Assembly: GCA_951406725.2 (NCBI GenBank)
Contig: OX597815.1
Location: forward strand, 213,280,001 to 213,344,000
Source of the DNA: Octopus vulgaris
Lineage: Eukaryota
DNA: 64,000 nt
Reading direction: 5' to 3'
Below the pieces are notes generated by a model. It worked only from the letters and a program-made list of their open reading frames with translations. It was not told the DNA's origin and made no database searches. This document shows positions 21,973 through 61,941 of this stretch, in pieces. The first letter of the stretch is position 1. Every line of letters starts with the position of its first letter. A program made the position numbers and the translations under genes.

Positions 21973-23082
21973 AAATATATTTATAGGGAATAATTAATAA
22001 ATTTTTCCCTTTTGAGGTTTTTCACACTAACTACTTGATAAATTCTTATAAAGATTTTATCCTATATTTAAAATACATATAAAGATATCATGGATTCTCC
22101 TGTCATTAGACAACATTTGAGGGTTCAGCAATTTCTTGCCGAACAACCACACAGAAGATGATTTGTTTATGGTGATCAAATGTTTGTGTTCACATTAGCT
22201 CACTCCCTCCGTCAAATCAACATTACCTGTACAGGTGCAACTGGGTGCCACATGTCAGGTGAGAGGAAATGATCACAGAGCCACATGAAGTGAAGTGCTT
22301 TGCTCTAGAACACAATGCAATTCCTGGTCTGGGAATCGAACCCATGATCTCACAATCATGAGTGCAATGCCGTAACCACTAAGCCATGCACCTTCACAAC
22401 ATATATATATATATATACACACACATACACTCATATATAGGAGCCTGTTTGGCTGTGTAACTAAAAGCTTACTCCCCAAATGATGTGCTTGGGTTTCATC
22501 CTGTTGTAGGACACTTTGAGCAAATGTCTTCTATTATAGCCATGGACTGATCAAAGCCTAGTGTGTATGTGTGCGTGTGTGTGTGTCAATATATGTATGT
22601 ATGTGTGTGTGTGTATACATATATATAGGAATAAAAATTTATATATAAAGAACGTGAAATACACAAAGGGACGAACATAGAAAACAGACAAGTCATTCGA
22701 AGCCTTCAATCTTCAGTCAGAAACCGAATCATCATGGCAAATTTCAGCTGATTAATTCTGATATTTGCTCCAACTATGCCAGCCCCAAGGAAAAAACTAA
22801 GCTGTGGGCATTAGATTTCTTGGTAGAAGGAAAGAATGTGAATGCAACAGAGACGAATATAAATACAAAAAGTGAAAACAAATTGAAAACAATAATGGTT
22901 AAAAACAGGATAACAGCGGGTGTCTTACGACTTTAGACAAAATGAGACAAAAATAACATATGGCTTCCCTAAATCGTAACTCTGTGCCACGGGAGAGTTT
23001 TAGCCTCCGCGATGATGGGCAGATCTGGAAATTCGTCAAGTCTGGTGAGTCGTGGATAAGGGATGCCAGTTGGACTGAGCAG

Positions 23083-26077
23083 ACTACACCCACAACAACA
23101 ACTGGCAATGCAAAAATCTTGGGAAACTAACCAAGAACAATCAGCCATCCCCTGTATATCATCATCTGAAATCCAGATATAAACTGCTGTCCTTGAATGC
23201 CCGTATTTTATGCAACAAGGTGCATCTTTTTGTCTCCTACGTCAAAAGTATCAACCCAGATTTCATCACAGTCACGGAAACGTGGGCACACTCTGCACTC
23301 TGTGATGGAGTTTTCAGCATAGCCGGCTACAACCTGTTCCGCAAAGACCGCATTAATCGCCGTGGAGGGGGTGTGATGATTTATGTTCGATCAAGTCTAT
23401 CGGCAATCCCCTGTGATGATTTGAACCAATCTCAGCAGGAGGTATTTTTCTGCAATGTACACATGACCATGTCAACACTTCTGCTCGGAGTCGTTTACCA
23501 TCCTCCAAATTATCGCCAAGACGCGCAGCTTTTTGATATCCTCAGAGCTGCTGCCATGAAAACAGCCACATATGTGTATATTGCGGGGGACTTCAATTTC
23601 CCTGAGATTGACTGGGAGGCCTTCCGTTGGCCGCAAAGTGCAGACGATTTCCTTGAACTGGTGCTGAATTCGAATTGGTCCCAAGTTGTTACCTCCCCCA
23701 CAAGGGGTAACAACACTTTGGATCTGCTACTTACCGCTTCTCCTGAAACAATCATTAGTGTCGCTACCGAAGAACCTTTGGGTGACTCTGATCATTCCAT
23801 GGTCATGGCCGACTTGTCTCTGATTGGTTGTAACAAAAAACACAACCATCTTCAGACTGCCCGCTTTGACTGGAATAAAGCAAACTGGAGCTCTTATTGT
23901 ACTGAGCTGCAACGCCCAAACTGACGCGAATTTTATGCCTCTGGAGATGTGGACACTATACTCCAGAACATTCTGAATTCAATATGTGCAGCATCAGTAC
24001 CATGCAAGCACAAAAAACCACCCAATAGTGCAATTTGGGAGACTGCAGCAGTCCAACTTGCCAGGAAAGAACGCCGTAATGCTGAACGGGAATACAAGTT
24101 GCACAAATCAGAGAGCAACAGGAAAAAGCACAATAGGTCAGCCAACCACCTCAAGCAGGTGACAAAAAAGGCAGTGCTTGAATTTGAACAACGCATTGCA
24201 GCTAACCCTGACAGCAAAGGGTTCTGGAAGTATGTGTACTCAAAGCAGAGACCCCACTCTCCTGTTGGTCCCCTTCGCAATCTCCACACAGGACAGATTA
24301 CTGGCAATCCTGAAGAATGTGCAGAAATCATTGCTGGATGCTATGCCGGCATCTTTACTGTCGAAGACCAAAATGTTCCATCATCATCACCACTGACATC
24401 GGACTCTATATCTTCTATGCAATTTACACCAGCAATGCTGCAACGCCACCTAAAGAATAAACGCAATTATGCCTCTCCTGGTCTCGATGGTGTTACATAC
24501 CTACTTCTCAAACGCGGTGGGTACTTTCTTCTAAGCCAACTTTCTCTATTCTTCCAATTCTGTCTGACAATGGTGTTACTCCAGAACAGTGGAAAACTGC
24601 CAGTGTCATCCCTCTGTTCAAAAAAGGCGACCGCACATCGCCTGTCAACTATCGCCCCGTCAGTCTTACTAGCTGCATCGCCAAACTGATGGAATCCTGT
24701 ATCAGGGAAACCCTCTGGAACTTCTGGAAGTCTCACAGCCTCATCCAGCCGTCACAATTCGGATTTATTCCTAACTCCAGCTGCTGTAATCAACTCATCG
24801 AGTTTCTTGAGGACGTTACCCAAATCACTGATCGCGGATCCTGGGTGGATGTTGTTTACCTGGACTTTGCTAAGGCTTTTAACTCTGTGCCACACAAAAG
24901 ACTTATGGTGAAGCTTTCTGCGTTGGGTGTAAGAGACGAACTCTATAACTGGTTAAAGTCCTTTATTTTCGGCCGAAAAGAGGTTGTCACAGTTCTAGGA
25001 CAGCACTCTTCGCCCTATGAGATGACATCTGGTGTGCCGCAGGGATCTGTTCTTGGCCCCCTTTTATTTGTTGCATATGTTAATGACATAGATGCCAACT
25101 TAAAGAATGCCACAGTGCTGAAATATGCAGATGACATCAACCTGTACCTCGAAATAAAGAGGTCAAATCCTATACACTATGGATCTCTATTGCAAGCAGA
25201 CCTGGACACAATGCAGCAGTGGATCATGGACTGGCAACTCAAGCTGGCTGTGGACAAATGTACCACCATGCATTTTGGGAGGAGAAACCCAGCGTCCACC
25301 TACTCCCTCCACAACACTAGTCTCAAAAAGTCTTCAAGTGAACGTGACCTGGGTGTTATTGTCGACAGTGATTTGCGTTGGACAAAACACATCGCTAAAA
25401 TTGTCAAGAAGGCTGAGGGTGTCTTGGCATCACTCACCAAATCTTTTGTGAGCCGCTCTCCGGCTATTTATCTGCGGCTTTATATAGCTATGGTAAGACC
25501 TCACCTGGAATTTGCATCACCGGTCTGGAACTCCTATCTTGCCCAGGACATCAATCGTCTGGAAGCTGTTCAGCGACGTGCAACCAAAAGAATACCCTCC
25601 ATCAGGCATTTGCCATATCCTGAATGCCTTACCTCCCTGGGCATGGACACATTGAAACTCCGACGTCTGGCAGCTGACTTGGCAGACACCCATAAAATTA
25701 TCAACCATCGCACAAACAATAACTCTGAGCACCTCTTCAAACTCCACCCATCTAACACCCATGGACATATTTACAAAGTAAGAAAACAGCACAGCTCCCA
25801 TGACTTCAGGAAACATTTTTTCACGCTGAGAGTTGCTGAAGCATGGAACAAACTGCCGACATCGGTTGTTAGTTGTCGGAGCACTGCATCCTTCAAGACT
25901 TCCATGCTTCCTGAGATTCGCCAACACTACACTTGATTTTCTCCCCTCCATACACACACACAAGCATGTTCACTTTCCAGACATTTCTACACTACTGCAT
26001 GTACTTTATATGCACTTTCTGACAAGTTGTGGTGCACCTGAGCACTGTATACAATAATTTCATTATTATTATTATAT
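23083..26077 (+). mobile_element. CR1-like LINE, 5'-truncated, with near-complete but inactivated ORF2 (APE endonuclease plus RT)
   Basis: APE motifs (LNAR, VTETW, GGGV, GDFN, LDL, SDH) and RT motifs (QFGF, YLDFAKAF, SGVPQGSVLGPLLF, YADD). Premature TGA at 23922-23924, frameshift near 24568, (TTA)n tail. Possible degenerate TSD tgagcag/caagcag. Confidence 0.93.
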
Positions 26078-29551: not shown

Positions 29552-31152
29552 ACTAATATAATAATAATAATAATAATAATAATAAACATTGTGTACAGTG
29601 CTCAGGTGCACTACAACTCATCTAAAGTGTATATATAATCAGGTGTAGTTTCGGCGGATTTCGGAAAGCATGAGGGCCTTAAAGGATGCAGTGTCATGGC
29701 AGTCAACAACTGACGCAGGCAGTTTATTCCATGCTTCAGCAACTCTGAGCGTGAAAAAATGTTTCCGAAAGTCATGGGAGCTGTGTTGTTTTCTGACTTT
29801 GTAGGCATGTCCACGTGTGTTAGACACATGGAGATCAAAAAGGTGTTCAGTGTTGTTGGTGAGGTGGTTGATAACTTTGTGGGTGTTTACCAAGTCCGTC
29901 GCCAGACGCCGGAGCTTCAGGGAAACAAGGCGCTCAGAATATGGTAGGTGTCTGATGGAGGGTATGCGTTTGGTTGCACGTCTCTGAACAGATTCCAGGA
30001 GGTCAATGTTCTGAGCAAGATAGGGGTTCCAAACTGATGATGTGAATTCCAAGTGTGGTCGTACCATAGCTGTATACAGTTTTAAATAGATGGCTGGAGA
30101 GCGGTTAACAAAAGTCTTGCTGAGTGATGCCAAGACACCCTCGGCCTTCTTGACAATTTTAGAGATATGCTTTGTCCAACGCAAATCACTGCTGACAGTG
30201 ATGCCCAGGTCACGCTCGCAAGAGGATTTCTTGATATCAGTGTTGTGGAGGGAGTATGTAGACGCAGGGTTTTTTCTCCCAAAATGCATGGTGGTACACT
30301 TGTCCACAGCCAGTTTCAGTTGCCAGTCTGTGATCCATTGCTGCATTGTGTCTAGGTCTGATTGCAGGAAAGAGTTGTAGACATCAGGATCTGTCCTCTT
30401 GATTTCAAGGTACAGCTTGATGTCGTCTGCATATTTCAATACTGTGGCATTCTTTAAATTGGCATCTATGTCATTAATGTATGCCACAAACAAGAGGGGA
30501 CCAAGGACAGATCCCTGTGGTACACCCGATGACATCTCATATGGTGTAGAGTGCTGTCCTAGAACTGTGACTAACTCCTTTTGGCTGGGTTCTATAGTCT
30601 ATTTCAGCTTGGTTTCTACAGCTGGATGTCCTTCCTAATGCCAACCACTTTACAGTGTACTGGGTGCTTATTATGTGGCACCCACACCAATTCTGTTGTG
30701 GTGGGCAGTTAAAAAGGTCATCCCCCACACCCATTGCAGAGAGTTTCACCATAAGCCTTTTGTGTGGCACAGAGTTGAAAGCCTTAGCAAAGTCAAGGTA
30801 GACAACATCCACCCATGAGCCACTGTCAGTGATCTGAGTAATGTCCTCAAGGAACTCGACAAGCTGGTCACTGCAGCTGGAGTTAGGGACAAATCCATAT
30901 TGTGAGGGTCGGATGAGACTGTGAGAGCTCCAGAAGTTCCAGAGTGTTTCTCTGACACACGATTCCATCAGTTTTGCAATACAGCTAGTGAGACTGACTG
31001 GGCGATAGTTGACAGGTGATGTGCGGTCGCCCTTTTTGAACAGAGGAATGACACTGGCAGTTTTCCACTGCTCCGGAGTAGCACCATTGTTGAGACAGTA
31101 CTGGAAGAAAATAGAAAGCTGGTGTAAAAGGAAGTGCCTGCCATGTTTGAGA
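29552..31152 (-). mobile_element. CR1-like LINE RT fragment, same family as 23083-26077, interrupted at 30585-30708
   Basis: Protein closely similar to the + strand copy (YLDFAKAF, SGVPQG, YADD, TRGH). Shares the 3' motif gtgcacctgagcactgta and a (TTA)n tail. Confidence 0.93.
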
Positions 31153-33739
31153 GTATGTGTGTAAGGTACGTGAACTGATCCTCAGTTTGAATTGCTTAAC
31201 AGATCCTCTGGACTAACTGTGAAGTTTATTTCCAAAGTGAATCTTCCTCCTTTTTTTGTGTTGGATATTTCAGGAACTTTCTGTTTCAGGAATTAAGTGA
31301 TGCTTTATATTTATATCTCAGTAGTATTTCAAAAATTGTGAAGATGGTGAAATTGGCCAATACTTTTCGTCTTTGGCCATGTTGTTTTTGTGCATTAGTT
31401 TAGGATTAGAGTTTGAGATAAAATAGATTTCCTATGATAAATATTTTTATCAAGAAATCTTTGCCAGAGTTTAATATTTATTGAGAACAATCTTAAGAAA
31501 TTTGTCAGGATCACTGACTGCATTTCTTTGGATTTCTCCTTTTCCCTCTACAACTTTTCATTTCTCTGATATGTTTTGTGAAGAACAAACTTTAGCAACG
31601 TAAATCTGATCAGCAAAAGTTTGTTAATTGAAGACAGAACAGTTTTGTTTCTAAAAGATCTCTTCCTTTATTTCTAAAACCATATCAGAGCATTTTGTGC
31701 ACATTTAGGATTAAGTGATGCAGTGATTTTGTATTAAAAAAGTATTTTAGATTTAATTTTGTGTTACCAAAAGGTTTCTTTTCTTAATGATGTTTTAAAT
31801 TATTGATGAAGGTTTTAAATTGAGTTTCAGCTGGTACTTCTGTCATCTGGAACTGTTGTAGCATTATCAATAATTATATTTTTGTTTCAGACGACTGAGC
31901 ATATGTAGCACATGGCTGTACTCCTGAAGACCTGCCCACCACAACAGAATTGGTGTGGGTGCCACATAATAAGCACCCAGTACACTGTAAAGTGGTTGGC
32001 ATTAGGAAGGACAGTCAGCTGTAGAACCCAAGCTGAAATAGACTATAGAACCCAGTGTGGTTCCTAGTCTTGCCAGTTCCTGTCAAGCCATCCAACCCAT
32101 AGCAGCGTGGAAAAGGGACATTAAATGTTGATGATGCTGATTTTAATTTGTTAAGAATGATTTTGTCTCTCTGGGGGCCATGTTTCATTTTTTACTCTTT
32201 GATGCAATGAGTTGGAGCATTATTAAGTCAGGTGTTGGTGCTTTGTCTCCAAATAACCTCCAGGCCATTTCAATATCAGTTTTCAGAAAGAATGAGCTCA
32301 ACAACCCAGTTTAAGCTCCATCACATTCCAGTTTAACTTTTCTCAGATTCATGCAGCCAAATTGTAAAGTAATTGATAGAAGGCGATGGGAAACCTAAGA
32401 AAAATAGGGAATCTTCAGAATATCAGCATCATCATCATCATCACAGGTTGGACGGTTCGACCGGGGTCTGGGAATCCAGGAGGCTGCACCAGGCTCCAGT
32501 CTGATCTGGCAGTGTTTCTACTGCTGGATGCTCTTCCTAACGCCAACCACTCCGTGAGTGTAGTGGGTGCCTTTTACGTGCCAGGGGAGGCTGTCAATGG
32601 TCACGATCGGTTGGTGCTTTTTACGTGCCACCGGCACGGAAGCCAGTCAAGGCGGCGCAGGCATCAGCCACGTTCGGATGGTGCTTTTTATGTGCCACCA
32701 GCACAGGTATCACGACTACAATTTCCATTTGATTTTTTCATGTTGTGTACTTGACTGAATAGGTCTCCTCAAGCACAGCAGGTCGCCCTATGATCTAAGG
32801 TAAGCAGAGCAGGCCATCCTGCGATCCAAGGTACTTTGGATGGGCTGGGGCTTCTATGTGAAGCTGGTGCAGGAAACAGCCATGAACTAACGTTATTTGT
32901 CGGGTTTTCGCAGTCACAGCATATCTCCAGAGGTCTCCGTCTTTCGTCATTGCCTCTGTGGCTTAAATATAAAAAAATATTTTAACTTTTCTCAACAACT
33001 CCACTCAAAATTATCACACATTCTCCTATTCAGTTGTAGGGGCTTTTTCATCTAACCGATTACAAAGTAACTAACGATAGTTACAGAACACTGACTTATA
33101 ATTAATGCAATAAAATCCAGGAATGTCTTCGTCATCCACTAAGAATTGAATCATAATTAATTATATGAATAGTATATTGCTTATTTTTGATTCTTCAAAC
33201 AAGGTTCATTTTTTTCTCTTGCTTCCCACCAACAATACTTCAGAAATTCTTCTCCACTTATAACAGGTTAACTAAACGTTATAAGAAACAAATATTTATA
33301 ATTAAGACGTAAAGAAAAATCAATGAGGCTTTGTAAGTCCTGTGAGAAGTATTTGAAGAAACAGTCGTAGAGAAAATGTATTAAAATCCATTTAGTTATG
33401 TAAGGTAGACAACTGAGACTAAATTCAATTAAAGGGAGGCAACTACTTTAAACTGCACTAATTGCCTTTTATGTCCTTAAATGGATAAAAAATAGGAAAA
33501 TGAAATAAAAACAAAAATATTGTGTGTTGTGTTTGGATACACAACACACAGTCAGAAACAAACAATAACAAAAGTCAGTAAAATTCCAATGATATTTCAG
33601 GAAAAGGTGGACTTTAACATAGCTGTCCCACATAAATTGGAATTTCTCCCTATTTCCCTGGACTTCACAGATTTTCTTTTGCCTCTTGCACTTCAAACAA
33701 AAAATCAACGATCTTTCATCGTCGCCTCCAACCATACTC

Positions 33740-45460: not shown

Positions 45461-47063
45461 CAGTTGCGGCCAAAATGTTCAGAACGGCATTGTTTTCGTC
45501 AGAAAAGTAAGTATAAATTTTTATCAAAGTAGTTTTATATTCTATAATTTTCACAGACAATAAATACAATATTAATTGTTATTGTCTGAGATTTTGGTGT
45601 AATTTGAGAGGATAATACAAAAGTTATGGATGATTTAGTGATTTACTGCAAAACCCATGGCGGCCAAAATGATCAGAACGGTTGAAAAAATAACAAAATA
45701 ATCAAAAATGACAGAGAATACTGGAATTATTTAATATTTAGTGTGAAGCCCTTTAGCTTCAATCACACTCTGACATCTTTGACTGCATGAGGAAATTAAA
45801 TTTTCAATTTCTTGCTGGGTGATCTTATTCCATTCTTCCTGAAGGGCATTCCATAATTGCTCAGTTGTTTTAGGATTTCTGGCTTTCGAACGTTCTCCTA
45901 GAATATTCCATACATTTTCAATAGGATTGAGATCTGGGCTTTGAGCAGGCCAATCCATAACAATAACCTTTTCAGCCTTAAGGAAGTTCATGACCACCTT
46001 AGCCTTGTGACATGGGGCATTGTCCTGCATGAATATGGGTGGTCGCTTAGTTGAATTTCTCAGCACAGGCAAGACATGATCTTTTACAATTTGTTTATAA
46101 ACTCCTGCATTTACCTTTCCATGTAATCGCACCAAAGGGCCCACACCATCTCCAGATATCATCCACCAAACCATGACACTTCCTCCACCGAATTTAACAC
46201 TAGTCTTAAGGCATTTAGGTGGCAGTTTTTCACCTACTTTTCTATGAACGTACCTTTTCCCATCTGAACCAAATAACAAAAATTTAGATTCATCACTGAA
46301 ATGCACCGTTTGCCATTTTTCTTGAGACCACAACACATGTTTGGTTGCAAAGGTAAGACGACACTTTTTATTCTTGGAGCTGATCAGTGGCTTCACTGCA
46401 GGTGCTCTTGCTTGTAGGTCATGTTCAACTAAACGACAAGACACAGTTTTTCGAGATAAAGTTTTCTTCAATACAATGCTCATTTTCCGAGAAACAGCAC
46501 CAGCAGTCTTAAATCTGTCCTTTTTAACCAACTTTACCATAGCACGATCTTCTCTCTTGGTCGTTTTTCTTGGCCTACCTGTAAACTTTCTTGCTTCACA
46601 CAAACCACAATCATCATAGACCTTAAGAATACCGTGTACAACACTTTTTGACTTGTTAACAATCTTTGCAATAGATCCAATACTTAAATTATCTTTCCTT
46701 CGAAGCTTTATAATCTGCTGACGAATTGGTAATGGAGTAAGTGGCATTATATTAACAAAGTACACTGCAAATATTTTTACTAATGTTTAGTAAACGAACC
46801 GTCACGTAAACAAATTCAAAACATTAGAGTTTGCCGGTTAAATATACTAAAACATGGAGTAAAAGCAACTGTTCTGATCATTTTGGCCGCCATGGGTTTT
46901 GCAGTAAATCACTAAATCATCCATAACTTTTGTATTATCCTCTCAAATTACACCAAAATCTCGGGCAATAACAAATAATATCGTATTTATTGTCTGTGAA
47001 AATTATAGAATATAAAACAACTTTGATAAAAAATTATATCTACTTTTCTGATGAAAACAATGC
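45461..47063 (-). mobile_element. IR/DR-type Tc1 transposon inserted in the (TA)n of a family A SINE (SINE halves 45185-45460 and 47064-47226)
   Basis: TA|CAGTTG left end. The ~224-bp TIR (45461-45684) holds two DRs gcggccaaaatg(t/a)tcagaac. The mirror TIR (46866-47063) lacks the outermost ~26 bp. Confidence 0.95.
45731..46747 (-). CDS. Tc1-family DD34E transposase (338 aa from ATG)
   Basis: HTH region with GRPRKT, catalytic motifs FSDESKF, MQDNAPCH and SPDLNPIENVW. 34 residues lie between the second D and E. No stops or frameshifts. Confidence 0.95.
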   Translation of the reverse strand: MPLTPLPIRQQIIKLRRKDNLSIGSIAKIVNKSKSVVHGILKVYDDCGLCEARKFTGRPRKTTKREDRAMVKLVKKDRFKTAGAVSRKMSIVLKKTLSRKTVSCRLVEHDLQARAPAVKPLISSKNKKCRLTFATKHVLWSQEKWQTVHFSDESKFLLFGSDGKRYVHRKVGEKLPPKCLKTSVKFGGGSVMVWWMISGDGVGPLVRLHGKVNAGVYKQIVKDHVLPVLRNSTKRPPIFMQDNAPCHKAKVVMNFLKAEKVIVMDWPAQSPDLNPIENVWNILGERSKARNPKTTEQLWNALQEEWNKITQQEIENLISSCSQRCQSVIEAKGLHTKY

Positions 47064-54125: not shown

Positions 54126-55596
54126 TATAATTGTTTAAAGGGGAAAGAAATTTAAGATGTTGTGACATTCATGCATTTCCCAAGTGTTGTAATTAGTGGC
54201 ATACGCAAATAAGGCAGGCTCTAATTGGGAATTAAGAAACCAGCTTTGACAAACACTGGCCCCTAGAAACTTATGGCCACAACATGGCACCTGCCATAAT
54301 AAAAATAATTACAATGATAAAGTTGATAAAATCTGCACATTCAGTTTGTTTCTTAGAAAATTAAGAAATGGTCCTAACTTCATGTTTTCATTCTCCTTTT
54401 GCTATCTTGCTTTGCTATCTTTCATTCCAGTTTTCCCCCTTTATACTACCTACTGGATTTGTCTTTTTAATGATACAAGACTACTTACTAAGTATAATAA
54501 TTGTTTCTCTATGGGTAAAATATATATATATAGGTTTCTAGAATGTAGCAATGTATGTGTGTGTGTGTGCGGTGAATGTACATGAGAGAGAAAGAGAGAC
54601 CATTGGAAGATTATGATAGTTTTTAATATTCCAAGATCACAACTTAAAATTACCAGGAGAGAAAAGAAAAGAAAAACTAATATTTCAAAAATGAACTTAG
54701 ATCATAAAATAATCAAAAACAAATACTATTTACAAGTGAAATTGTTTAAAATACCAATTTAAATGTCAAACTATTAAAATGTACCAAATTTAGAAAGGAA
54801 AATAATACGAAATCATATGCACATAAGTAGTGCATACGTGTGAATATATGGTGCAACAATACATTGGTGCTGTTCAAGAAAATGCTCATGTTGTTTACAC
54901 TGCAATTTTTGCTTTTGTTGTTGTATTTACAAACCTAAGTTACAGAAAAATTCCTAACTTTGGCCATAAAAATTCTCAAAAAAAAAATGACTTTCTTTAC
55001 AATGCTGGAGGTCTATTTTACAAAGAAGGGGACCTTGCAATAATATGATATTGGCCTTAGTGTATAAACGGATGCATATATTCTTGGAGGAATGAAAGGC
55101 AGAAAGTTGACTCCGGCAGGATTTGAACACAGAACAGTGAGGTACTGAAGCAACCAGCCCGGCATTCTTCTGTATTGGCCATCTCCACAGCCCTCAAAAT
55201 AATAATAATAATAAGGTATTGTTAAGACAAAAATAAAGACAAAAAACCCAGCTGCAAAGCAGGCCTTATTTCTGTTTTTAAAGTTTCAAAAAAAAAAAAA
55301 AAAAAAAGAAAACTGTTTAAAAACATAAAACAGAGAAGAGAGAGTAAAAAAGAGAGGAGTGGAGTTAAAATAATTTCCCCAAGCCAAAAAGAAATAAAAA
55401 TGAGAATTATAACGGAAAAAAAAAAAAATGCAGTTCTCTGTTTGTATGGAACCTGATATTGTTTAAATTAGTTTATGCAACGGTCCTGTTGTTGGTGTTG
55501 TTTGTTTTTATTTGTAGGTGCATACTTCAAGTTTTCTTTTTGTTTGTTTTTTCACCCCACCCCCCCTATTGAAAAAAATCTTCTCTTTGCTGCACT

Positions 55597-55663
55597 TCAA
55601 TCCAAAGCGTGATGAGCAATCACAGCTGCCCAGTTGCAATATTTCTTCAAGTACATGAACATT
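55597..55663 (-). CDS. Candidate terminal coding exon of an unidentified minus-strand gene
   Basis: Strong acceptor (tttcatttcttctttcttttccag|), then after one carried-over base [21 protein letters not shown]-stop, followed by several kb of AT-rich UTR-like sequence. Protein not recognised. Confidence 0.35.
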
Positions 55664-55889
55664 CTGGAAAAGAAAGAAGAAATGAAAAAAAATTATTATA
55701 AAGATGTCAAACTTTTGCATAAAACTATAAAACTGTAAGTTAGAGGGAAAAGTAAGTTTGCTTGATCTGCTCCCAGAATATGGCCAGGAATCAATAAAAG
55801 GATAAAGGAGTTTCAGTACAGGAACGGCTGGTTTGTTAAGAAGTTCACTTTCCAAACATGTTCCAGATTTTATATGCATGTGTGTGTAT

Positions 55890-55921
<32 letters not shown>

Positions 55922-56165
55922 GTATGTATATATATATGTATATGTATATATATATATATGTATATATATGTATATATATATATATGTATATATATGTATA
56001 TATATATGTATATATATATATGTGTGTATATATATGTATATATATATATGTATGTATATATATATATATATATATATATGTAGGTCCCGGGTTGATTCGG
56101 GGTTAACCACAGTAAGTAAGGTACTCAATACATAGCAGAGTAAAATTAATTTATTATATAGAAGG

Positions 56166-56216
56166 AGCTTCTACAGGACTAGTACTGTTTCATTCAAGAG
56201 AAATCTTCAGGAAGCT
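56166..56216 (-). ncRNA. Putative type I hammerhead ribozyme (copy 1)
   Basis: Exact reverse complement of 58021-58071. Confidence 0.65.
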
Positions 56217-56601
56217 ATTTAACAAGAATTGTATTAGCATTTATACATTTAGGCAGGTTTAAAGGAGTGGTGGTGGGGGACTTTTTTGGGGGTAGGCATA
56301 GCGCAAAGTATCATACTTGGGGGAGTGGTCAAGGAGTCAGTGGTAAGTTAGATGAAAGAATAGATAAATAAAAAAATAAAAAAATAATAAAAAAAAATAA
56401 TAAAAAAAATAAAATAAAATAAAATAAAAAAATAAAAAAATAAAAAATATATATAAAAAATATATATATAAATAATATATATATAAAAATATATATATAA
56501 AAAAAAAAAAAAAAAGGGGGGATAGAGTTATAGGTAAATAAGGAGATTCTCTCTTATACCTATACACATATGTATACGTATCTACACACACATATATACA
56601 C

Positions 56602-56632
<31 letters not shown>

Positions 56633-57173
56633 CATATATACACATATACATACACATCTACATACACACATACATACACCCGCCCACATATACAAATTTA
56701 TACACATGCATATGCATATACCTGTCTACACATACACACACGTATATATGCATACACTCACTCCCATGCATGCACGCATACACACATGTATCTGTATGTA
56801 GGAGTATATGTGTGTGTGTGTATGTATATGTGTATATATATATATATGTATATTTATTGGTGTATATGTATAGACTAGCCTCCTAAAGTGTAGACACGAA
56901 TCTGTAGGTACGAGTACGTATGTGTATATACGTGAACGTATGTAGATGTTTGTATGTATGAATATAACGCGTGCGTACGTGTATGTGTATGAGTGTACGA
57001 ATGGGTGAATGTACGTGCTAATGAGTGTGCGTGCGTGAATGAGTACTTGCCTTCTAGTAGACAGACAAATGGACATGCTGCCATAGCCAGGATCCTTAGC
57101 TCTAGCGATCAAAGATAACAAAAGTAATAAATGAAGATAATAAAATTAAAATTAGGGAATGGGCCTGTATTGG

Positions 57174-57220
<47 letters not shown>

Positions 57221-57319
57221 GTGTATGTGTAGGTATGTATAGGTACACATGTGTATGTGTATGTGTATGTATATGTGTATATGTATGTATGTGCACACAT
57301 GTATATGTATATATGCGTG

Positions 57320-57350
<31 letters not shown>

Positions 57351-57646
57351 GTACATATGTGTATGTGGGTGTATGTATATATAGGTGTAAATATGTGTAT
57401 ATAGGGAACTAGGTGTGTTGTGTGTGCATGAGTGTATGTGCGTATGAATATATATTTTTCTGTGTATATATGTATGGGTGGTCGTGTGTATATATATACA
57501 TGTGTGTATGCGTGCATGCATGGGAGTGAGTGTATGCATATATACGTGTGTGTATGTGTAGACAGGTATATGCATATGCATGTGTATAAATTTGTATATG
57601 TGGGCGGGTGTATGTATGTGTGTATGTAGATGTGTATGTATATGTG

Positions 57647-57691
<45 letters not shown>

Positions 57692-58020
57692 GTGTATATA
57701 TGTGTGTGTAGATACGTATACATATGTGTATAGGTATAAGAGAGAATCTCCTTATTTACCTATAACTCTATCCCCCCCCTTTTTTTTTTTTTTTATATAT
57801 ATATTTTTTATATATATATTATTTATATATATATTTTTATATATATTTTTTATTTTTTTATTTTTTTATTTATCTATTCTTTCATCTAACTTACCACTGA
57901 CTCCTTGACCACTCCCCCAAGTATGATACTTTGCGCTATGCCTACCCCCAAAAAAGTCCCCCACCACCACTCCTTTAAACCTGCCTAAATGTATAAATGC
58001 TAATACAATTCTTGTTAAAT

Positions 58021-58071
58021 AGCTTCCTGAAGATTTCTCTTGAATGAAACAGTACTAGTCCTGTAGAAGCT
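58021..58071 (+). ncRNA. Putative type I hammerhead ribozyme (copy 2)
   Basis: agcttc-CUGAAGA-u-uuc(ucuu)gaa-u-GAAA-cag(uacuaguc)cug-UA-gaagcu. Stem I is 6 bp, stem II is 3 bp with an atypical U.U closing pair, stem III is A-U plus 3 bp, and the cleavage triplet is GUA. Confidence 0.65.
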
Positions 58072-58088
58072 CCTTCTATATAATAAAT

Positions 58089-58121
<33 letters not shown>

Positions 58122-58276
58122 GTATATATATATATATATATGTATATATATGTATATATATATGTATATATATATATGTATATATATATGTATATATATA
58201 TGTATATATATGTATATATATATGTATATATATATGTATATATGTATATATATATATATATGTATATATATATGTA

Positions 58277-58321
<45 letters not shown>

Positions 58322-58447
58322 ATATGTATATATGTATATATATAAGTCCAACCCATGCTAGCATGGAAAACAGACGTTAAATGATGATGATGATATATAT
58401 AACTTAGGAAGGTTTTGGCCAGTATTGGCCCAGGCCATGTCTAACTA

Positions 58448-58508
<61 letters not shown>

Positions 58509-58723
58509 TACAAAATTAGAGAATGGAGAAACATACTTAAATCAGTAAAACATCAACTATCCGATGATACTCAATCCATACTTTAATACACCATTACATA
58601 TGAGTAAAGGCAATATATAAAATGAACTGAGATATACAGTAATAGTAAAAAGATAAAGAGATATAAGTAAAAAATTTCAAATATAATATACAAATAAATC
58701 ATATATGTATATATATATGTATA

Positions 58724-58897
58724 TACTTTGATACTTTGATAGGTTTCGGCCATTATTGGCCCAGGCCATGTCTAACTTAATAGCACCACCTGGTGAAGTC
58801 TTTCAAGTCAGAATTTGGGCACTATGGCCCACTCAAGTAGAGAGTTATTGTTTACAGAGACATATCCGGGTGTAGGGGGTTTATCCGGGATTTCTTG
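58724..58897 (-). mobile_element. Short 3' end of the LINE family at 59408-61064, flanked by (TA)n
   Basis: Nearly identical to 59408-59558, with an (atcaaagt)2 tail on the element strand. Confidence 0.88.
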
Positions 58898-58898
58898 G

Positions 58899-59397
<499 letters not shown>

Positions 59398-59407
59398 GGG
59401 ATATATA

Positions 59408-61064
59408 TACTTTGATAGGTTTCAGGCCATGTCTAACTTAATAGCACCACCTGGTGAAGTCTTTCAAGTCAGAATTTGGGCACTATGGCCCACTCAAGTA
59501 GAGAGTTATTGTTTACAGAGACATATCCGGGTGTAGCGGGTTTATCCGGGATTTCTTGAAGGAATCTGTCCAAAGACTTCTTGAACCCTATAGGGTCTGT
59601 TTCTGTTTTAATGTGTTTTGGTGTAATGTTAAAGAGAGCGGGCCCAATTGAGGTGAAATAATTGTGCCGTATTGTTGTTATGAGATGAGAGTGCGATTTT
59701 TGTTTTGGGCGGATGGCATGGGGCCCAAGCCTTGGATGTACCTTAAAGGTGATACCAACATCATTTGGGCAATGCTGATGGAATATTTTCCACATCATGC
59801 TGATGATGTAGCGCTCACGACGACGTTGGAGAGAATAAAGTTTTAGCTTTTCTAGTCGACCCCAATAGTCGAGGCCTGTCATGCCATCTATCTTTTTTGT
59901 GATTGCCCTTTGAGGTGCTTCAACTTTTATGATACTTTGTTTTGTGTGGGGAGACCACAGTGGACAACAGTATTCAAGGTGGGGTCGGGCAAAAGTGGAG
60001 AAGAGAAGGATAATGGTGTGGATATCTCTCGACTGGAAAGTTCTGAGAATCCAGGAACACATTCTGCGGGCCATGTCGACTTTGGTGTTTATATGAGTGG
60101 CCCAGCTTATGTTGTTGTCCACAATTACTCCCAAGTCTCTGATGTTGTTGGATGCCACGAGAGTTTCACCTGAAGGAAGGGAGTATGGGAGTTTCAGGGC
60201 ATCCTCTTTTCCAAAGTGGATTAACTCAAATTTATCCTCGTTCAGTAGCATATTGTTTTTTTCTGCCCATTGGATAACAGCCAGTAGATCTGACTGAAGG
60301 CATGTCCGGTCACTCGCCTCATTTATGACCTTCTGTAGCTTGGAATCATCTGCAAAGATTTTTATGTTGCTGTGCTCGATGATGTCATTAATGTCGTAAA
60401 TGTAGATGATGAAAAGAAGTGGGCCCAGCACAGTGCCTTGCGGAACGCCACTACTGACTTTGGCTGGGCTTGATTTTACCCCTTCAACTACAACATGTTG
60501 AGATCTGTCTGTCAGGAAACACTTGATCCATTTCAGTAACTTTCCAGAGACACCAATGTTGGATAGTTTTTTCAATAGGATCTTGTGATCAACCCTGTCA
60601 AAGGCCTTACTGAAATCAAGGTAGATGACATCGGTGTTGGAGCCCTTTCCCAAAGCTCTCAAAATGTCATCAAAGTGATGCAGGAGCTGCGTTAGGCAGT
60701 CCCTTCCATTACGGAACCCATGTTGGTTAGAGATCAGCCGTCTGTTGCTTTCCAGAAATTGGGTTATTCGAGATCTCACCACCCTCTCAAATACCTTGAT
60801 GATATGAGAGGTGAGTGAGATCGGACGGTAGTTCACTGCAAGGGACTTGTTTCCCTTTTTGAAAACTGGGACAACAGACTGGGACAGAAGGTTTTTTGGA
60901 ATATAGCCAGCATCCAGTGAGTTTCTCCACAGATTAGCAAGGGGAGATGCAAGTTGGTGTTGACACACCTTCAGGACACAAGCAGGGAACCTATCGGGGC
61001 CTACTGCTGAATTGTGTTTTATTTCGTTTATCGCCGCTAAGACATCAGGGGCACCAAACGTTAT
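59408..61064 (-). mobile_element. 5'-truncated CR1-like LINE (second family) with uninterrupted RT frame 59469-61064
   Basis: [41 protein letters not shown] and RPHLEYC motifs. Both ends abut (TA)n. The N-terminal YI-repeat part of the 702-aa ORF is microsatellite. Confidence 0.93.
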
Positions 61065-61103
61065 GTGTATATATATATGTATGTATATATATATATGTAT
61101 GTG

Positions 61104-61180
<77 letters not shown>

Positions 61181-61183
61181 CGG

Positions 61184-61302
<119 letters not shown>

Positions 61303-61459
61303 GTATATATATGTATATATGTATATATATGTATATATGTATATATATGTATATATGTATATATATGTATATGTATATATATGTATATATATATGTATAT
61401 ATATATGTATATATATATGTATATATATATATATGTATATATATATGTATATATATATG

Positions 61460-61532
<73 letters not shown>

Positions 61533-61708
61533 GTATATATATATATAATTGCAGCGTGGAAGGTGTTTGTAAGCCATTTAAGAAACACACAAAAGCCGTT
61601 CGATTCAAAATATTTTCGTCGCTAAAATCCGCGACCTGTTCACTGACAAAAATCCGTGCTGCATCTGAGAAAGTAACAATTATGTGAGTACATCTCCGTA
61701 TATATATA

Positions 61709-61941
61709 CAGGGTGTTCTAAAAAGAGATGTACTCACTCTTTGACTTCCCAGTACTCATGCATTTTGTGTTCAAGTAGATGTTTATTGATATACATACGA
61801 TCCTAAAAAGTTAAATTAAATTCAGGAAAATAAATTGTAGAAATGATTATTTATTATCATTTAGAATTATTTAATGTTCTCTCTCAATCCTACAAATTGG
61901 TAATCGTCTGTCAAAGAGTGAGTACATCTTTTTGGGACACC

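Follow-up and report, generated by a model that had tools for sequence, protein, structure and literature searches.

Organization of the locus

Within the 64-kb stretch of octopus DNA analysed here (the window), an asymmetric head-to-head unit is composed of a forward copy of ~1.3 kb (~56792-58090, plus strand) and a shorter inverted copy (56791-56080, minus strand), with their 5' ends together. The forward copy is non-coding and GT/TA-rich, and its part at 57496-58090 is mirrored by the 5'-truncated inverted copy at 56147-56791 (minus strand). Aligned with each other, these two arms match at 586 positions; their 2 mismatches fall at a C/T homopolymer border, outside which there is no substitution, and the indels (6, 1, 1 and 56 nt) are all within simple-repeat tracts. 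The unmirrored centre (56792-57495) shows the same excess of G over C on the plus strand as the right arm, which is why we assign it, as the upstream portion, to a single forward copy of 1.3 kb. A 6-nt palindrome marks the head-to-head junction (56784-56791), where up to 8 nt can be assigned to either copy, so that the exact border is ambiguous.

The inverted copy bears a one-sided 3' tail of 64-67 nt on the minus strand (56080-56146, ending at 56083-56080), which brings this arm to ~710 nt; two hairpins are predicted within the tail, of which the last has its AC-rich loop at 56086-56101. This tail is missing from the right arm, whose tail-less end joins directly to the right flank (58091-58344), the same end class being found in all four sequencing runs compared below. 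The left flank (55906-56079), taken as part of the target microsatellite, and the right flank both consist of (TA)n interspersed with G and share one polarity, which fits insertion into one tract; an earlier note on this DNA had also placed the element in (TA)n. A target duplication is not readable inside such a repeat. Beyond the microsatellites, the unique flanks are not mirrored.

The earlier note described an inverted-repeat element with ribozyme motifs at both ends. Inverted arms are indeed present, but the unit is asymmetric, with a one-sided tail and an unmirrored centre, and the motifs, ~1.8 kb apart on opposite strands, lie near the outer ends rather than at them (25 nt inside the right end and 89-92 nt inside the left). 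The same note's statement that the locus has no open reading frame (ORF) holds: judged by eye, the frames of at least 50 residues in the element are low-complexity or short, with no coding remnant, and a Pfam scan of the frame at 55511-56170 gave no match. The unit has no upstream direct pLTR, and no further copy or fragment of the element was found elsewhere in the 64 kb.

Other features of the window include a RING2 gene (polycomb E3 ligase; 1365-2612) present as a single open frame of 415 residues, against 422-434 residues in octopod homologues. Such a near full length indicates that the gene is largely intronless; over the 141 residues compared (frame 1365-2609) it is 100% identical to proteins of Argonauta hians and Octopus bimaculoides, the next named matches reaching at most 90%, which identifies the host as an octopod. 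A Tc1-type transposase frame of 351 residues lies at 45731-46786. A LINE with APE endonuclease and reverse transcriptase (RT) occupies 23079-25936, a second RT is split over two frames (29639-31181), and a LINE-type RT on the minus strand (RVT_1, E 2e-30; 58402-58880 and 59405-61755) is interrupted by long (TA)n tracts, the 3' end region of this last LINE being repeated at 58402-58451, 58729-58890 and 59405-59550.

The hammerhead motifs

The two 51-nt motifs, at 58021-58071 on the plus strand and 56166-56216 on the minus strand, are identical by sequence comparison. Position-by-position mapping gives the order stem I, CUGAAGA, stem II, GAAA, stem III, GUA and again stem I, and both copies thereby show the core of a type I hammerhead (CUGANGA, GAAA and UH in that order, together with stems I and III). 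Cleavage is predicted after 58065 in the right copy, at the GUA site proposed in the earlier note, and between 56172 and 56171 in the left. The letters and order of these paired, opposite-strand motifs are thus as that note had claimed. Stem I has 6 bp, stem II 3 bp with a 4-nt loop, and stem III 4 bp with an 8-nt loop, and the description of stem III as minimal must be dropped. At the base of stem II the purine-pyrimidine closing pair, usually G10.1-C11.1, is absent family-wide and is replaced by U.U (58034 and 58045 in the right copy).

The descriptor used in our search required the core together with 5 bp in stem I and 4 bp in stem III. Only the two motifs matched in the window, as against 2 matches in 300 windows shuffled in non-overlapping dinucleotide blocks; both window matches represent one duplicated sequence and were counted once. 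The core boxes alone occur no more often than expected by chance (14 matches in the window against 14.3), and the 51-mer folds no better than its shuffles (z -0.17). None of the 120 Rfam matches at E<=5 in 55000-59500 belonged to a hammerhead family; all were microRNA-like, lay on (TA)n and fell under their own thresholds. Taken as a whole, the sequence supports the reading of the motif as a near-canonical type I hammerhead of the Penelope/retrozyme kind, for which self-cleavage is predicted.

A repeat family in public sequencing runs

Part of the element is contained in 23 of 24 listed public runs, from three organisms. Four of the 24 were compared in detail over 303 of the ~2010 bases (56066-56368), using a variant threshold of 4% and a contig cut-off of 80%, and yielded 2289, 1435, 157 and 267 matching contigs. 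The motif-bearing sequence belongs to a family that has many copies and occurs in three or more organisms. Summed contig depth reached ~10^6 in run X21, and in X23 the hammerhead bins were several times deeper than the upstream bins while X21 was flat, although depth is not a copy number. No contig in the four runs spanned the locus. Degenerate hammerhead patterns found no match among metagenome contigs, where the first pattern, having fixed a minority loop allele, was too strict, nor among viral contigs.

Another letter or a deletion was listed at 19 positions: none of the 39 in the core and stems, 3 of the 12 in the loops and 16 of the 219 elsewhere. The earlier note had looked to preferential conservation of core and stems among copies, and this is seen relative to the loops (Fisher p 0.011) but not significantly relative to all other positions (0/39 against 19/231; p 0.086). 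The tail (56080-56146), for which every one of the four runs provides coverage and none lists another letter, shows the same invariance as the core; stem changes of any kind are absent at the 4% threshold, leaving nothing to covary; and the 80% cut-off itself favours conserved sequence. Conservation of the core and stems therefore lends modest support to the ribozyme reading.

At position 56183, in the loop of stem III, another letter makes up 86-92% of the depth in all four runs and shortens the palindrome to CUAG. The 6-nt palindrome (acuagu) highlighted in the earlier note is thus real in the copies of the window but a minority allele, and only CUAG is family-wide. No variant was listed at either U of the U.U pair (four runs, 4% threshold), so that this mismatch is the state of the family; of the two options left by the earlier note, a family variant or an inactivating change of this copy, the first is therefore favoured. 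At 56183, 56218 and 56236, both arms carry the allele that each of the four runs has in the minority, which points to one source for the two.

The family has two end classes, tailed and tail-less, both leading into (TA)n. Loose ends at 56145-56149 run directly into (TA)n in all four runs, as the right arm does, and the tail, with its transition into (TA)n, is covered by other contigs; none of the loose ends listed leads from the tail into an ORF. Beyond the tail-less ends near 56149, X21 and X23, from two organisms, share an identical 11-nt unique sequence outside (TA)n, which could reflect an old common insertion or a preferred host repeat. At 56216, loose ends in all four runs show other upstream sequence whose join coincides exactly with the 5' edge of stem I, suggesting that the motif is common to subfamilies or to shorter copies. 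One X21 consensus at this point, built from 7 contigs with an agreement of 0.64, consists of a 27-nt palindrome that leads into the three opening letters of stem I, and looks like two hammerheads head-to-head, 27 nt apart. Diverged upstream sequences also join at 56290-56291 and 56307, pointing to subfamilies, which are 80-90% alike.

Predicted folding and ribozyme behaviour

The active fold is predicted to account for ~2.5% of the ensemble of the 51-mer, for 0.2-1.2% when the 19 nt to the short end are included and for 0.01-0.03% with the tail. An 8-bp hairpin predicted at 58062-58080 (plus strand; -6.1 kcal/mol; mirrored at 56157-56175) takes in the 3' strand of stem I along with the cut site, competes with the ribozyme fold and appears in the minimum-energy folds of longer transcripts. 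Occupation of the cut site and stem I by this hairpin would partly explain the low share of the active fold in longer transcripts. No variant is listed within the hairpin, the variant at 56156 lying just outside.

With the allele of the window, two copies of the motif cofold at -29.4 kcal/mol through an exchanged stem III, against 2 x -8.5 kcal/mol for the monomers; the majority allele at 56183 should pair less well as a dimer. All of these figures ignore tertiary contacts, magnesium and protein. The ribozyme is predicted to be weak or reluctant, helped by CUAG dimer formation or by protein. Because the two motifs of the locus are encoded on opposite strands, a single RNA cannot bring them together as a dimer, and their pairing gives no evidence for the dimeric working that the earlier note mentioned. 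Transcription through the whole locus would instead yield RNA with a ~590-bp duplex in which the ribozyme is buried.

Upstream of the right motif, a TATAAA at 57992-57997, 24 nt before stem I and free of listed variants in its mirrored counterpart, might serve as a pLTR promoter or be due to chance in AT-rich DNA. Helix I has a YAG at its 5' end, and ~19 nt upstream lies a CUAAU that resembles a branch point (57998-58022). One subfamily seems to be without the YAG, and the majority allele at 58001 breaks the CUAAU, which makes the idea of a splice site weak. We also considered whether the loose ends at 56216 represent spliced forms and rejected this, as the alternative upstream motif was not found in the element.

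Probable origin of the locus

We consider it very probable that the locus is one recent, 5'-truncated insertion of a Penelope-like element (PLE) in (TA)n, made up of a forward copy and a shorter inverted copy head-to-head. A PLE protein with RT and GIY-YIG domains, provided either in trans or from a longer parent RNA, would have cut the microsatellite, and the same family RNA would have been copied twice, from starts 25 nt and ~90 nt past the ribozyme cut site, with both copies stopping early and being joined at the short palindrome. Fold-back of the first strand and later trimming of one end might have led to the same product. The two arms reach 25 and ~90 nt beyond the predicted cut, which makes uncut RNA, or RNA cut and rejoined, the likely template. 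The ribozyme would matter in the source element and not in the present copy.

The link to an autonomous PLE is inferred from anatomy only. An RT/GIY-YIG ORF attached to the motif is absent at the locus and among the frames scanned with Pfam (21 of the 46 window frames of at least 120 residues), in which no GIY-YIG match was found and the RT frames were LINE-like. The RT frames at 24461-25933, 29642-31181 and 59472-61577 were rejected as PLE partners, as they match RVT_1 only and one lies beside an APE-type endonuclease.

Whether the source was a true non-autonomous PLE derivative of ~1.3-1.5 kb without an ORF, mobilised in trans, instead of the 3' region of an autonomous element, is a question on which we place the derivative just short of even chances. 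The 1.3 kb carry no coding remnant, the family is very abundant with subfamilies that differ upstream of the motif, and non-autonomous PLE derivatives have already been described (Craig 2021, PMC8557442; 2026 retrozyme preprint). However, PLE copies are usually 5'-truncated (Craig 2021, PMC8557442), a unique spacer of 0.9-1.5 kb precedes the 3' pLTR in Pen1_Av (PMC3846280), the forward copy begins at the inversion junction and has no natural 5' end, and only 303 nt of the element were compared with the runs. The family may be non-autonomous, as the earlier note described it, but a truncated 3' region of an autonomous PLE fits equally well.

It is also conceivable, though in our view unlikely, that the family is a very abundant and still active ORF-less octopod lineage derived from Penelope, bearing the first cephalopod hammerhead, in which the ribozyme acts as a timed switch. 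Cutting would then occur only during transcription or as a dimer, after which the conserved downstream hairpin would shut the ribozyme off; the RNA, thus preserved, would be reverse-transcribed from two fixed starts. In addition, a 3' splice site bordering helix I might remodel the ribozyme, as in Drosophila Penelope.

Decidedly unlikely is an origin as the dispersed offspring of a non-LTR retrozyme, in which a tandem hammerhead repeat is cut, circularised and inserted by the PLE machinery. The near-canonical type I motif with its 6-bp stem I and stable stem III would suit such a source, as would the U.U at stem II, shared with axolotl HHR_Amex2 (PMC7229834), ends past the cut site that fit a circular template and the proposed origin of retrozymes from PLEs (2026 retrozyme preprint). 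Yet known units measure 150-450 bp and stand in direct tandem (PMC7229834), whereas here the unit is at least 1.3 kb and the motif has no direct repeat; nor was a joint between tail and 5' end seen, although the stretch compared could not show a distant one. Of the Penelope/retrozyme-like membership assigned in the earlier note, the kind of hammerhead and the repeat family are supported, but retrozyme membership is not, as there is no tandem unit. An LTR retrozyme is rejected, the repeats being inverted rather than direct LTRs and the motif type I, not type III.

A MITE or foldback DNA transposon, bounded by long terminal inverted repeats and with a hammerhead look due to chance or to a passenger, might account for the long inverted arms, the TA target, the missing ORF, the unremarkable folding of the 51-mer and the Rfam result, but is very improbable given the asymmetric termini with a 64-67-nt tail on one side, the rarity of the full descriptor by chance, the placement of variation in loops and the separate occurrence of the two end classes in the runs. 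An assembly artefact, with the inverted arm a fold-back chimera of a long read, would suit the near identity of the arms, the low-complexity region and the want of a contig across the locus, but there is scarcely any likelihood of it, as the unique flanks past the microsatellites are unmirrored, the left arm has a tail missing from the right and both end types occur in independent runs.

Comparison with known systems

The comparisons that follow draw on excerpts of the publications cited. Canonical PLE insertions have an inverted 5'-truncated copy adjoining the 5' end, and carry a tail of 30-40 bp, often at one end only, with a bias towards microsatellites, (TA)n among them (Craig 2021, PMC8557442); head-to-head repeats with palindromic junctions and, in the rotifer element Pen1_Av, a non-coding spacer of 0.9-1.5 kb before the 3' pLTR have also been documented (Arkhipova 2013, PMC3846280). 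The octopus unit resembles the endonuclease-bearing PLEs (Penelope/Poseidon, Neptune, Nematis and Hydra) in its inverted copy, its tail at one end, its hammerhead near the 3' end, a microsatellite target that hides any duplication and a short palindrome at the junction. It differs from the published units excerpted in having no ORF and no direct upstream pLTR, in a tail of 64-67 nt as against 30-40, and in its inverted arm of ~710 nt.

Dual hammerheads on opposite strands have been attributed to truncated PLEs, and low activity has been noted for PLE hammerheads (Cervera and de la Peña 2014, PMC4209133). Similar to those described there, the octopus motif is of type I with a palindromic element in loop III, and occurs as an opposite-strand pair arising from truncated copies. 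In contrast to them, its stem III is no minimal helix but has 4 bp and an 8-nt loop, its stem II is short and has U.U where G10.1-C11.1 is highly conserved, and the spacing is 1.8 kb against 100-700 bp (PMC4209133). In Penelope of D. virilis an intron ends at helix I, and the octopus motif likewise has YAG at the 5' end of this helix (PMC4209133). For the U.U, a precedent exists in axolotl HHR_Amex2, also a type I motif with this mismatch at the base of helix II, of which 22% was cleaved in one hour as a monomer and more as a dimer (PMC7229834); a pair of the G10.1-C11.1 type thus seems to be usual and not obligatory. Unlike the octopus motif, that of the axolotl lies in direct tandem repeats of 350 bp (PMC7229834).

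Among cephalopods, the octopus Naiad PLEs share the host group and the preference for (TA)n, yet, according to the excerpted supplement of Craig 2021, they are without canonical hammerheads and survive in cephalopods as remnants; two short motifs taken from the octopus hammerhead did not occur in the metadata workbook of that supplement. Annotation of O. vulgaris has recorded 31 recently active Penelope-like families, the excerpt of which does not mention ribozymes (2026 annotation). We found no paper on cephalopod hammerheads in a search that had most subscription papers and the repeat databases outside its scope, and the species table of the 2026 retrozyme preprint could include a cephalopod.

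In the anole element PAc, the PLE protein cuts and extends both strands, and internal start sites define the tail (Frangieh 2024, PMC11167929); the ribozyme is protein-assisted and dispensable in vitro (PMC11167929). The octopus family is like PAc in having ends downstream of the hammerhead, two end classes and an AT-rich target, and unlike it in that the PAc ORF starts inside the hammerhead, whereas no open frame starts there in the octopus element within the 90 nt available (PMC11167929). With the cut at +26 and starts at 111-118, reverse transcription of PAc begins 85-92 nt past the cut, at an AC-rich stem-loop (PMC11167929), and the octopus tail ends 89-92 nt past the cut, below an AC-rich loop, an agreement that may be coincidence.

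The locus is most likely a new octopod example of an already described PLE layout and of a described kind of ribozyme variant, and it adds an octopod repeat family to that class. Its value as a specimen lies in one young insertion that shows both end classes, in a ribozyme close to canonical and in the many copies found across three or more organisms. As the predicted off-switch hairpin, the U.U pair and the CUAG loop can each be assayed in vitro, the family offers a usable test case for the still-open role of the hammerhead in PLEs (PMC8557442, PMC11167929).
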